NCBI GenBank assembly: GCA_964016885.1
Contig: OZ024743.1
Coordinates: forward strand, 105,896,001-105,960,000
From: Eledone cirrhosa
Lineage: Eukaryota
Direction: 5' to 3'
Length of the DNA: 64,000 nt
Part shown: positions 24,122-36,375 of the stretch, piece after piece
Layout of the letters: the number at the start of each line of letters is the position of its first letter
Position numbering within the stretch: the stretch's first letter is position 1
Notes under the pieces: model-generated
What the model was told of the DNA's origin: nothing
Seen by the model: only the letters and a program-made list of their open reading frames with translations
Databases searched by the model: none
Position numbers and translations under genes: made by a program

Positions 24122-24168
24122 TGCCGACAGCCGTTTCGTCCGACCATATGGTGGGACTTTTCAAGGCA
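24122..24168 (-). ncRNA. type I hammerhead ribozyme motif (U3-A8 variant)
   Basis: UGCC UUGAAAA GUCC CACCAUAUGGUC GGAC GAAAC GGCU GUC GGCA. Confidence 0.82.
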
Positions 24169-24607
24169 TATAACATGTGATTGTAAGTTCATTATTTGGG
24201 AAACTTTATATTTTTTTAGGGAAACTTTATATATTTATTTTTTTATTTTATTTTATTAGTCTCTTAATCTCTTCTAGTTTAAGTTTATTGGGGCTTGTAA
24301 GCTTTATGCACTTATTGAGGGATCTTTTAAGGTGCTTCTACGAGATCCCAAGTCTTTTACTTTTAATGCGTAAATTATAAATTATCTAATTTTTAACCTT
24401 CAATCCCTGACTCTTAGGCCATTTTCAAATTCTCTTAACTCCCCATAACCCATCCCTTTTACAATTCCGACAACTAATATAAAAGAGCCCCCTTAGAATA
24501 TAGACCCCAAATATACAAGCGGAGCTGCTGATGTATACCACAATTTCAAACTGCTAGTCTTAAGTGATACGTTGATGTAAATAATGAACTTACAATCACA
24601 TGTTATA

Positions 24608-24654
24608 TGCCTTGAAAAGTCCCACCATATGGTCGGACGAAACGGCTGTCGGCA
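24608..24654 (+). ncRNA. type I hammerhead ribozyme motif (U3-A8 variant)
   Basis: Identical to the motif at 24122-24168, on the opposite strand. Confidence 0.82.
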
Positions 24655-24921
24655 ATAAACTTGTTATAATGTCATAATAGTTCCTTTGTTCTTTTTCATT
24701 AATATATATATATATATATATATATATCTTAAGGTTTGTTGGTTCACCACTGGATAGAACTGGTCATTCCGTATGGTCAATCCTGGTGTAATATTGTGAA
24801 GAGTACTCAACACAGTGCAGTTCACCCATCTTCGTTTGTGTAGTTGGTGGTGCGAATACGGAGTTAATTTTAAATGAAGTAACAGGAGGCTGGACTGGTG
24901 TAAATCCTTGAAAGGTTTATT

Positions 24922-24979
24922 ATACTATGATCATTTCAATGACCGGGTTCCATATGAATCCGGTGATATCATCAGGTAT
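24922..24979 (-). ncRNA. type I hammerhead ribozyme motif
   Basis: AUAC CUGAUGA UAUC ACCGG..CCGGU CAUU GAAAU GAUC AUA GUAU. Confidence 0.75.
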
Positions 24980-32047: not shown

Positions 32048-32238
32048 ATAATCTTCTATACACAATCATACACACCCGTGTATACTTCTCTCTCTCTCTC
32101 TCTCTCTCTCTCTCTCTCTCTCTCTCTCTCTCTCTCTCTCTCTCTCTCTCTCTATATATATATATATATATATATATATATATATATATATATATAATCA
32201 ACAACAAAGAACGCTTAGAGCATAGGTATATCTTTACT

Positions 32239-32284
32239 TGCTGACAGTGTTTCGTCCACACTATAAGTGGGACTCATCAGAGCA
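32239..32284 (-). ncRNA. type I hammerhead ribozyme motif, canonical core
   Basis: UGCU CUGAUGA GUCC CAC UUAUA GUG U GGAC GAAAC ACU GUC AGCA. Confidence 0.88.
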
Positions 32285-35200
32285 TAAAGAGTGATTACAT
32301 ATTACACAAGCAATAACAAAGCCAAGACAGAAGAATATATATGGGGATGCAATAAGTTGGGAGGGGTTTAAAGAGTAGAGTAAATAGAGTGTAGAAAATA
32401 AAATTGGAGGATAAAGAATAGTGAAAAGTAAAAAAATAAATAATAAACATTGAAGAAATAAAAAATAAACATTGAAAAATAAGCATTGAAAAATAAGAGG
32501 TGCTATCAGTCACAGTTGGGCAGGGTGCTGTTAACAAACAGTTACATACAAGCATACGCATAAGCATGAGCACCCGCATGCAACCACACAATAGGCAGCC
32601 ATATGCAACACATATAGTATAGACTAATACAAATAACATATCATGGACGAGTATGCAAAAGCTAAGAGATAAATGGTGGATATACAATGGGTACAAATAC
32701 AATGGGTAAAAGTAAGATAAACAAAGGATAAAAATAGATTAACGATAGATAAAAAATAGATTAACCATGGATAAGAGATAGAGAATAGATAAGGAATAGA
32801 CAAAAATAGATAAGATAGATAAGAGCAGATAAAAATAGATAAAAAATAGATAAAAATAGATAAAAAATAGACAAATAATATATATAAAAAATATAAAATA
32901 TAAAAAATATATATATAAAATATACAGATAATAAAGATAAAGGGTAAAGAATAAATAAAATAAAATTATATAAAATAAAATAAAATACAATGAAATAAAA
33001 TAAAATAAAGTAAAGTGAGATAAGATATATATTTTTTGAATATATTTCTTGAATATATCAGGGGCACACGAACGCCTTAAGTGTTACAGTTAGCCATATC
33101 ACAACAATCAAATGTTCAAATGAGATTTATAATCAACAGGTGCTATGTCCACACTCGATTGAGTTGACCATTGCAATGCAATGGAAACATCCCAGGTTTG
33201 GCAGTCACAGAAGTTCACACTCGAAAGTCACGGGTGTGCATTCACACAGTTGAGCGGTGGGGCAATCACAAAAGGTTCACACTCGGGCAGGAATCTATTG
33301 GTCAACAGAAGTATATCCACATCACTAGCAAGGACGTATGCAAGGAAGGTAGGTAAATTCACATGCAGCAGCAGGAACATCCATGGGCAGATAACTGAGT
33401 GTCACAACGTCACAAGGTAGCAAGCAAATTCGTTTACATCAACATGAACATCAAGAGGCAGATAAGTGGGCCGAAAGCAAGCAAGTGCAGGTGGGCTAGC
33501 CGAAAGCAAGCAAATACAGTTGGGTTAGGCGGGTTAATATGCATACTCAACAGCGCATATAAAAATAGCTTCAAAAGCCAATATCCATGAAATCACAACA
33601 TTGAGGCATCCCAAGAATATACACAACAATATGGTTAGTACGTATATGCATATACACACACCTCATGCATATATAGAGACGGTATATATATATATATATA
33701 TATATATATATATATATATATATATATATATATATATATATATATATATATATATATATATATATATATATATATATTTATATATAGACATATACAACCA
33801 CCTACACTCATACACATATAAATGTATATACAGACACACACGCACACACACACAGCGTAGGACACCCGGGTCAAAGCGGATATAATACATAGAAATATCT
33901 TATTAGGCTAACAAAAGGCAGAACCCACAACAGTCGCTCACACTGGTCACAGATAATATATTTTTTTCCCAGCAAAATTAATCAAAATAAATTCTTACGA
34001 GGAGATGCAGCCAAAATTAATCAAAGTAAATTCTTACGAAGAGATGCATGTCCACACGTGTAGTCGCCCGATTCAAGTGTAAACAGACCGTTAATAACTA
34101 CGGAGGGCTATCGGGGCCAAAACGTTATTTTTGGGATAATAACAACGACCGTCAATATATGGAAGGCCGATTGTTTGGCACAGTGGATGTGACCCATCCA
34201 CGCTCGCCTAGCCACCCTTAGTGCATTGGTGGGTCTATCCCAACGTGTATTTTACGGATCTGTACCTCTGTATGCGCATGAGTTATGATGTAATATATCT
34301 ATGTAGAGCGTGTACTGCGCTATAAGTTGCACAAATGGAAATCTAGCCTGTAACTGTGAGCGGACCTGTGCCATCTCGCCGTGAGCAGTAGATACGTAGC
34401 ACATGCACGTGTTACCCTCCTATTCTGTGGTTTAAGATCTACAGGCTGACTGCGGGGAGCTCTTGCCCGGTGTTGTAGTCTTTCTAGCACAATCGGCCTT
34501 CCATATATTGACGGTCGTTGTTATTATCCCAAAAATAACGTTTTGGCCCCGATAGCCCTCCGTAGTTATTAACGGTCTGTTTACACTTGAATCGGGCGAC
34601 TACACGTGTGGACATGCATCTCTTCGTAAGAATTTACTTTGATTAATTTTGGCTGCATCTCCTCGTAAGAATTTATTTTGATTAATTTTGCTGGGAAAAA
34701 AATATATTATCTGTGACCAGTGTGAGCGACTGTTGTGGGTTCTGCCTTTTGTTAGCCTAATAAGATATTTCTATGTATTATATCCGCTTTGACCCGGGTG
34801 TCCTACGCTGTGTGTGTGTGCGTGTGTGTCTGTATATACATTTATATGTGTATGAGTGTAGGTGGTTGTATATGTCTATATATAAATATATATATATATA
34901 TATATATATATATATATATATATATATATACCGTCTCTATATATGCATGTGGTGTGTGTATATGCATATACGTACTAACCATATTGTTGTGTATATTCTT
35001 GGGATGCCTCAATGTTGTGATTTCATGGATATTGGCTTTTGAAGCTATTTTTATATGCGCTGTTGAGTATGCATATTAACCCGCCTAACCCAACTGTATT
35101 TGCTTGCTTTCGGCTAGCCCACCTGCACTTGCTTGCTTTCGGCCCACTTATCTGCCTCTTGATGTTCATGTTGATGTAAACGAATTTGCTTGCTACCTTG

Positions 35201-36329
35201 TGACGTTGTGACACTCAGTTATCTGCCCATGGATGTTCCTGCTGCTGCATGTGAATTTACCTACCTTCCTTGCATACGTCCTTGCTAGTGATGTGGATAT
35301 ACTTCTGTTGACCAATAGATTCCTGCTCGAGTGTGAACCTTTTGTGATTGCCCCACCGCTCAACTGTGTGAATGCACACCCGTGACTTTCGAGTGTGAAC
35401 TTCTGTGACTGCCAAACCTGGGATGTTTCCATTGCATTGCAATGGTCAACTCAATCGAGTGTGGACATAGCACCTGTTGATTATAAATCTCATTTGAACA
35501 TTTGATTGTTGTGATATGGCTAACTGTAACACTTAAGGCGTTCGTGTGCCCCTGATATATTCAAGAAATATATTCAAAAAATATATATCTTATCTCACTT
35601 TACTTTATTTTATTTTATTTCATTGTATTTTATTTTATTTTATATAATTTTATTTTATTTATTCTTTACCCTTTATCTTTATTATCTGTATATTTTATAT
35701 ATATATTTTTTATATTTTATATTTTTTATATATATTATTTGTCTATTTTTTATCTATTTTTTATCTATTTTTTATCTATTTTTATCTGCTCTTATCTATC
35801 TTATCTATTTTTGTCTATTCCTTATCTATTCTCTATCTCTTATCCATGGTTAATCTATTTTTTATCTATGGTTAATCAATTTTTATCCTTTGTTTATCTT
35901 ACTTTTACCCATTGTATTTGTACCCATTGTATATCCACCATTTATCTCTTAGCTTTTGCATACTCGTCCATGATATGTTATTTGTATTAGTCTATACTAT
36001 ATGTGTTGCATATGGCTGCCTATTGTGTGGTTGCATGCGGGTGCTCATGCTTATGCGTATGCTAGTATGTAGCTGTTTGTTAACAGCACCCTGCCCAACT
36101 GTGACTGATAGCACCTCTTATTTTTCAATGCTTATTTTTCAATGTTTATTTTTTATTTCTTCAATGTTTATTATTTATTTTTTTACTTTTCACTATTCTT
36201 TATCCTCCAATTTTATTTTCTACACTCTATTTACTCTACTCTTTAAACCCCTCCCAACTTATGGCATCCCCATATATATTCTTCTGTCTTGGCTTTGTTA
36301 TTGCTTGTGTAATATGTAATCACTCTTTA

Positions 36330-36375
36330 TGCTCTGATGAGTGCCACTTATAGTGTGGACGAAACACTGTCAGCA
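36330..36375 (+). ncRNA. type I hammerhead ribozyme motif (one stem II substitution)
   Basis: UGCU CUGAUGA GUGC CAC UUAUA GUG U GGAC GAAAC ACU GUC AGCA. Confidence 0.82.

Follow-up and report, generated by a model that had tools for sequence, protein, structure and literature searches.

Type I hammerhead motifs with U3-A8 and C3-G8 cores at the ends of two inverted-repeat insertions in Eledone cirrhosa DNA

Four hammerhead-like motifs lie between positions 24,122 and 36,375 of a 64,000-nucleotide (nt) stretch of Eledone cirrhosa DNA from contig OZ024743.1, hereafter called the window. Two of them (24.1 and 24.6 kb, family A) carry U3-A8 at the tertiary 3-8 pair of the catalytic core, and two (32.2 and 36.3 kb, family B) carry C3-G8. 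The preliminary description of this DNA took the families to be sisters separated by a compensatory swap at this pair. The locus thus raises the question of whether the motifs are hammerheads, what kind of element carries them, and whether the two cores are linked by descent. We consider it very probable that the four are type I hammerhead motifs at the outer ends of two insertions, each an inverted repeat and likely a truncated Penelope-like element (PLE), one family with U3-A8 and the other with C3-G8, and that their RNA would cut itself only when two copies are paired through helix III. The anatomy of the motifs, the inverted arms, the one-sided extensions, the microsatellite flanks and the lack of common family A variants at positions 3 and 8 are read directly from the sequences. 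The motifs and insertions are as follows.

24608..24654, + strand: family A type I hammerhead motif, U3-A8 (N3 at 24612, N7 at 24616, A8 at 24617, N17 at 24650)
24122..24168, - strand: second family A motif (N3 at 24164), an identical copy on the opposite arm of insertion A
32239..32284, - strand: family B type I hammerhead motif, C3-G8 (N3 at 32280)
36330..36375, + strand: second family B motif, C3-G8 (N3 at 36334), with a C-to-G change at position 10.3
23967..24705, unstranded: insertion A, inverted arms 24071-24197 and 24579-24705, 99.2% alike
32192..36505, unstranded: insertion B, 2-kb inverted arms 32192-34174 and 34489-36422, 96.8% alike

The core boxes N3-UGA-N7-N8-A and GAAA and an NUH triplet were present in all four motifs, which also have in common G10.1-C11.1, A15.1-U16.1, a GUC triplet and an open helix I of 4 bp (UGCC/GGCA in family A versus UGCU/AGCA in family B). 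The 3-8 pair is of Watson-Crick type in both families, U-A in the one and C-G in the other. The motif at 24608..24654 has a helix II of 7 bp including one C·C mismatch and a self-complementary 8-nt helix III, and that at 32239..32284 has a predicted helix II of 8 bp with one bulge and a 7-nt helix III that is palindromic about a central C. As a monomer, helix III would comprise 2-3 bp beside a helix II of 7-8 bp. Self-complementarity of helix III extends over 8 of 8 positions in family A and 6 of 7 in family B, and the family A self-duplex was calculated at -11.1 kcal/mol, close to that of family C (-10.3), with family D at -16.1 (both families are described below). The start GUCCCAC ascribed to both family B motifs was found at 32.2 kb; the 36.3-kb copy reads GUGCCAC, which places a G·G mismatch at the third stem II pair. 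Loop II of family A (24623-24634) contains a 10-nt perfect palindrome (self-duplex -14.8 kcal/mol) that may be a second dimer contact, and its centre varies among family A copies.

With a strict type I descriptor that leaves positions 3 and 8 free, the window yielded six matches; 150 block-wise dinucleotide shuffles yielded none. Together with the anatomy, this bears out the view that the motifs at 24.1/24.6 and 32.2/36.3 kb are hammerhead motifs of type I, for which self-cleavage is predicted. The 7-mer TTGAAAA by itself carries no evidential weight, since it occurs 47 times in this AT-rich window (TTGANAA, 80 times). No match to the Rfam hammerhead models at the gathering score was obtained anywhere in the window, and because the C3-G8 motifs were missed as well, the models evidently fail to cover the short form. 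A search restricted to CUGANGA does miss the U3-A8 motifs, as had been pointed out.

The four motifs represent two insertions rather than four, as each pair sits on both arms of one inverted repeat. Insertion A carries a 104-nt extension at a single end (23967-24070) and has (TA)n tracts on either side; insertion B carries an extension of about 80 nt at a single end, and its flanks are (TC)n(TA)n and (TA)n. PLEs are described as having an inverted 5'-truncated copy, a one-sided tail and microsatellite targets (PMC8557442; this and the other published sources are cited for the portions drawn on here), and the layout of A and B, with inverted arms, a one-sided extension, microsatellite flanks and a hammerhead near the 3' end, fits that description. 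The insertions are therefore likely truncated PLEs, an assignment made from architecture because neither contains a coding remnant. At least 10 inverted-repeat insertions with arms of 130-2000 nt, located between (TA)n tracts, were seen across the window, for example at 24.7-27.9, 46.4-47.5 and 49.5-50.8 kb.

The proposed course is as follows. Source elements would be transcribed as tandems or partial tandems, in which two motifs could combine into a double hammerhead with helix III formed between the two copies. The 3-8 tertiary pair would form as U-A or as C-G, either of which would serve, and cleavage after GUC would trim the element's RNA close to the 3' end. Any source element whose 3-8 pair was lost would be copied less, such that only matched pairs would spread as families, and single inserted copies would afterwards decay at random.

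Variation among copies was followed for family A by aligning contigs of three public sequencing runs (X1, X2 and X5) and raw reads of a fourth (X10) to positions 24430-24700 at 80% likeness; X1 and X2 are one sample, and X5 bears another species label. The summed depth indicates a multi-copy family, the depth value being no copy number. Among 12 runs, none was listed as containing its RNA, a result that has no bearing on expression. Within the 47-nt motif the listed variants were N7 A>U (19% of depth in X1 and 12% in X2, also present in X5 and X10) and four loop II positions. Variable positions thus numbered 5 of 13 among the free positions versus 0 of 34 among the constrained ones (Fisher P value 0.0008), and 3 of 13 versus 0 of 34 in X1 and X2 alone (P value 0.018). 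The tallies of changes by kind were accounted for in X2 (19/19), X5 (14/14) and X1 (22/23, the remaining one being C>T), so that neither U3C nor A8G reaches 1% in the contigs of these three runs. Mismatched 3-8 combinations, which were expected to rival matched ones if the pair were not maintained, are accordingly not common in family A. The pattern, with variants at N7 and in loop II and no common ones at positions 3 and 8, fits selection on structure. The motifs had been offered as internal evidence of selection for catalysis; the conserved fold points to selection on structure, and catalysis does not follow from conservation.

Whether the cores of A and B differ by a swap depends on their kinship. 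Both begin with GUCCCAC and have an equal 20-nt helix II with an identical inner hairpin, and their stem II/loop II regions are alike at P values of 0.002-0.009. Similarity of the 45-nt tail had a P value of 0.02-0.05, and that of 29-40 nt upstream about 0.5. When alignments were anchored at the motif, the downstream P value fell from 0.097 (50 nt) to 0.021 (75 nt) and 0.007 (100 nt), the last being the best among 36 family pairs at 100 nt; the upstream values were 0.014 (50 nt) and 0.27 (100 nt). From these comparisons, A and B are rather probably distant relatives. The opposing explanation, whose chance we put a little below even, is that they belong to separate PLE lineages, each with a 3-8 pair that is old within its own lineage, and that the motifs are alike through hammerhead constraints and AT-rich 3' ends, with no swap having taken place between them. 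It is favoured by BLASTN, which at E<1e-6 does not match the two insertions to each other, by P values of 0.35 for 400 nt upstream against shuffles and 0.20 for the one-sided extensions as a stand-alone kinship test, and by the downstream region of A, against which 68 of 4970 other 125-nt segments score at least as high as B and which the unrelated-looking motif at 36872 matches equally well (P value 0.007 at both 50 and 75 nt). The common GUCCCAC start, inner hairpin and 20-nt helix II argue against separate origins, as does the top rank of the 100-nt downstream comparison.

Searches outside the window bear on the same point. In viral and phage contigs, a GUCC/GGAC pattern with positions 3 and 8 free was found at no fewer than 127 loci, and the 123 unique phage-contig matches listed comprised 111 C-G, 2 U-A, 3 U·G, 2 C·A and 5 other combinations. 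None of these 123 listed matches has a loop starting with CAC, which also speaks against independent origins of A and B. Among them U3-A8 was no commoner than mismatches; as the descriptor contained no check of helices I and III, this result is neither for nor against covariation. The pattern specific to A and B was found in only three stretches of the metagenome collection (3-8 being C·A, U·U and C-G), none with a helix I or III like that of A or B, and in no stretch of the viral sequences; its rarity is a further point against separate lineages. The metagenome and viral collections searched thus yielded no apparent relatives of the A and B motifs.

The sister relationship is consequently favoured by stem II/loop II and the 100-nt downstream comparison, but not by the first 50 nt downstream, the weak upstream similarity or the equally good tail at 36872. 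A Watson-Crick 3-8 pair is present in both families, and the descent that would make the difference a compensatory swap is weakly supported. Stem I does differ as UGCC/GGCA versus UGCU/AGCA, but a single change from C-G to U-A is one observation of covariation. The distance between A and B is large and most free positions differ, so the two changes at 3 and 8 are not callable one coupled event; with only two insertions, covariation is not established by A and B alone.

Further hammerhead or hammerhead-like motifs were identified in the window.

61047..61082, + strand: family C motif, intact, U3-A8, GUA triplet, palindromic 6-nt helix III, 3-bp helix I
57721..57756, - strand: family C twin, G16.2 changed to C
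8278..8313, + strand: family C relative, U3-A8, A13 changed to C
29732..29833, + strand: family D atypical motif, U3-A8, U10.1·U11.1, 75-nt helix II region, damaged helix III
28106..28207, - strand: family D twin, U3-A8, U10.1·U11.1, 75-nt helix II region, perfect 8-nt palindromic helix III, GUA triplet
2851..2944, + strand: family E decayed motif, U3-A8, 56-nt helix II region, long helix III, 4-bp helix I
1109..1202, - strand: family E twin, U3-A8, A9 and G10.1 lost
24922..24979, - strand: family K motif inside 24122..36375, new to this analysis, C3-G8, U10.1·U11.1, palindromic helix III, AUA triplet
27786-27843, + strand: family K twin
36867..36921, + strand: family F motif, intact, new to this analysis, C3-G8, 5-bp helix I, palindromic helix III
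44676-44718, + strand: further type I motif, new to this analysis, C3-G8, palindromic helix III
61573-61604, - strand: decayed motif, U3·G8, A15.1 lost; an endonuclease-like remnant (61655-61934(-)) lies immediately upstream
46427-46535, - strand, and 47293-47401, + strand: large-helix-II motif pair with a 90-nt helix II region, at element ends

U3-A8 had been noted at 2855, 8281, 29736 and 61050, and all four have it; the motif at 61050 is the intact one, and that at 2855, for instance, has a broken second stem II pair and a C at 16.1. Family C provides the direct link to PLEs. Its intact motif sits in a PLE inverted arm, the twin at 57721..57756(-) lies in sense orientation downstream of a reverse transcriptase (RT) remnant (59361-60137(-)), and the relative at 8278..8313 lies downstream of a PLE frame with an RT piece (5636-6436) and a GIY-YIG piece (6825-7118); upstream similarity between the 8281 motif and family C had a P value of 0.001. 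Many database relatives of the family C RT combine PF00078 with PF01541, and the named ones come mostly from bivalve genomes and bacterial-labelled metagenome bins. Being in sense orientation and 3' to RT and GIY-YIG remnants, the family C hammerheads belong to PLEs. Antisense to the family C element, a second GAAAC-bearing hairpin lies about 90 nt upstream of the hammerhead, at 57842(+) and 60960(-). Endonuclease-like remnants also precede the family D motif at 29732..29833 (28507-29087) and the family E twin at 1109..1202 (1984-2778(-)). The helix II regions of 75 nt (family D) and 56 nt (family E) are predicted to form branched stems, both with a AATTATAATT-type palindrome. Helix II is opened by U10.1·U11.1 at 28203(-), 29736(+), 44682(+), 24975(-) and 27790(+), and by C·A at 45795(-) and 49315(+). 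An inverted pair at 30290-30325(+) and about 30115-30150(-) has a CUGAAGA box and 15 nt identical to the 36872 motif, the remainder being damaged or short.

A census of the window gave 11 families, four with U3-A8, six with C3-G8 and one with U3·G8, a matched pair thus occurring in 10 of 11 (Fisher P value 0.015). To the positions noted before, it adds motifs at 36872, 44682, 45795/49315, 46535/47293, 24975/27790 and 61604. A relaxed scan had returned 20 rows, of which the 10 scoring at least 5 were kept together with 61604, and the nine low-scoring ones, all with mismatched 3-8, were dropped as chance; families E, J and K and the 45.8-kb copy of family H were added by hand. Mismatches were found at 61604 (U3·G8) and at 49315 (C3·A8 plus U4C), both with other core lesions, the latter being a family H copy counted under its better copy. 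Two census members are weak.

A more far-reaching possibility, which we regard as doubtful, is a true sister relationship of the PLE lineages A and B within one animal genome, with C3-G8 having become U3-A8 through a U3·G8 step such as that of the decayed 61604 motif, in a genome that also contains active PLE hammerheads bearing large branched helix II inserts of 56, 75 or 90 nt and a recurrent U10.1·U11.1 opening. If true, this would be a natural experiment in which a ribozyme active site crossed a fitness valley, and the enlarged forms would be missed by standard descriptors.

Several points weigh against the view of A and B as PLE hammerheads that cut in pairs and are maintained by selection. 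Helix III of family B gives a weak duplex (-3.0 kcal/mol), and unconstrained folding of single A and B motifs gave no hammerhead fold. The two motifs of each insertion point in opposite directions, so that one transcript has only one sense motif copy. Six PLE proteins of the window gave no tblastn match in 23967-24705 or 32192-36505, which means no RT or endonuclease remnant there. The census families were hand-picked. In the variation data, contigs lose rare variants, only copies at least 80% alike were included and the states at 3 and 8 are unlinked per copy; for the raw-read run X10, 39 of 60 variant rows were listed, and the other 21 include four A>G and one T>C. The 46 nt 3' of the family A motif are near-invariant too (two listed variable places), so conservation extends beyond the ribozyme pairs. 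PLE hammerheads cleave poorly in vitro (PMC4209133), and a lizard PLE did not require cleavage to insert in vitro (PMC11167929).

The last of these points also favour an explanation that we hold to be improbable, namely that the U3-A8 motifs are catalytically weak or dead, that the fold persists because it serves as a signal for protein binding or priming at the element's 3' end, and that UUGAAAA was spread by AT-biased drift. The weak activity shown in vitro by PLE hammerheads of animals (PMC4209133), the lizard result, for which no RNA-seq ends were found at the cut site either (PMC11167929), the base composition of the window (GC 26-42% in most bins) and a family A 3' tail conserved as strongly as the stems are all in line with it. 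However, N7 is the sole variable core position in family A, as in catalytic hammerheads, including those of cricket satellites (PMC2837043), and drift would not predict that 10 of 11 families have positions 3 and 8 matched. An origin of the motifs by chance in repetitive, AT-rich DNA, where TTGANAA is frequent and nine rows of the relaxed scan were themselves treated as chance, is next to impossible in view of the strict matches against none in shuffles, the location at element ends, the recurrent palindromic helix III and the family A variant pattern, being refuted for families A, B, C and F and conceivable only for the weakest additions (61604 and the 46.5/47.3-kb pair).

Under the favoured reading of A and B as paired type I hammerheads of likely truncated PLEs, the window adds a host with both core types well represented, with U3-A8 in 4 of 11 hand-picked families within 64 kb. 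As N7 varies and positions 3 and 8 do not, it also offers modest sequence evidence that PLE hammerheads are under selection, and their in vivo role (PMC8557442, PMC11167929) could be studied with a multi-copy U3-A8 family.

The window as a whole is AT-rich, with many microsatellites and retroelement remnants. It includes a near-intact non-LTR (long terminal repeat) element at 13446-19009(+) with endonuclease, RT and zinc-finger domains in a 1204-aa frame, and an RT-bearing non-LTR remnant at 9678-12875(-). Frames at 38835-40748(-) may be Helitron helicase pieces.

Exchanges of the hammerhead 3-8 pair were reportedly studied in 2007, and dimer-cleaving PLE hammerheads are said to have been treated in a 2017 RNA Biology study. 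Natural covariation from C3-G8 to U3-A8 in hammerheads was described by Perreault et al. 2011 (PMC3088659), who refer to earlier work in which U3-A8 ribozymes were active in vitro and report U10.1·U11.1 as a natural variant. Those hammerheads exhibit the same compensatory change as A versus B and the U10.1·U11.1 of families D, G and K, but the examples in the cited portion are largely from phage, microbial and metagenome DNA, unlike A and B, which are from an animal-like genome. For the lizard Poseidon element PAc, single changes at 3 or 8 abolish activity and the double change C3G/G8C restores some (PMC11167929); the PAc hammerhead is PLE-borne like A and B, but its core is C3-G8, U3-A8 was not among the versions tested in the cited portion, and cleavage needed protein. 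Naiad elements have cores with long spacers (PMC8557442 supplement), comparable to the large helix II regions found here. The non-LTR retrozymes of animals (bioRxiv 10.64898/2026.07.22.740005) are, like A and B, non-coding PLE-derived repeats with type I hammerheads; they are head-to-tail tandem repeats, whereas A and B are inverted pairs without a tandem unit.

The closest parallels are the PLE motifs of Cervera and De la Pena 2014 (PMC4209133), which resemble A and B in being type I, located at PLE ends and equipped with a short helix I, an enlarged helix II and U3-A8. U3-A8 motifs are missed there by the standard descriptor (about 1,300 in Schistosoma mansoni), opposite-strand hammerhead pairs lie 100-700 bp apart, and animal type I hammerheads have a dimer design based on a self-complementary helix III. 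In their Fig. S3, the S. mansoni(4) core UUGAAAAA stands against CUGAAGAA in S. japonicum with near-identical helix II, the Cercyon motifs of the two species differing by the 3-8 swap, and a U3·G8 motif occurs in Saccoglossus. The S. mansoni/S. japonicum sister pair is closer than A and B, and both core types lie within one 12-kb stretch here, unlike the cases in the cited portion. In contrast to the minimal motifs of that study, A and B have G10.1 immediately after A9 and a palindromic helix III of 7-8 nt, which places them nearer to its shrimp, mosquito and rotifer variants; they fall outside the strict minimal class (an extra nucleotide between 9 and 10.1, no helix III) and within the dimer type, through whose short palindromic helix III two copies can pair. 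The covariation, the fact that PLEs carry it and the blind spot of the search have all been published (PMC3088659, PMC4209133) and will therefore hold little surprise for the specialist, and families A and B are a further example of them.

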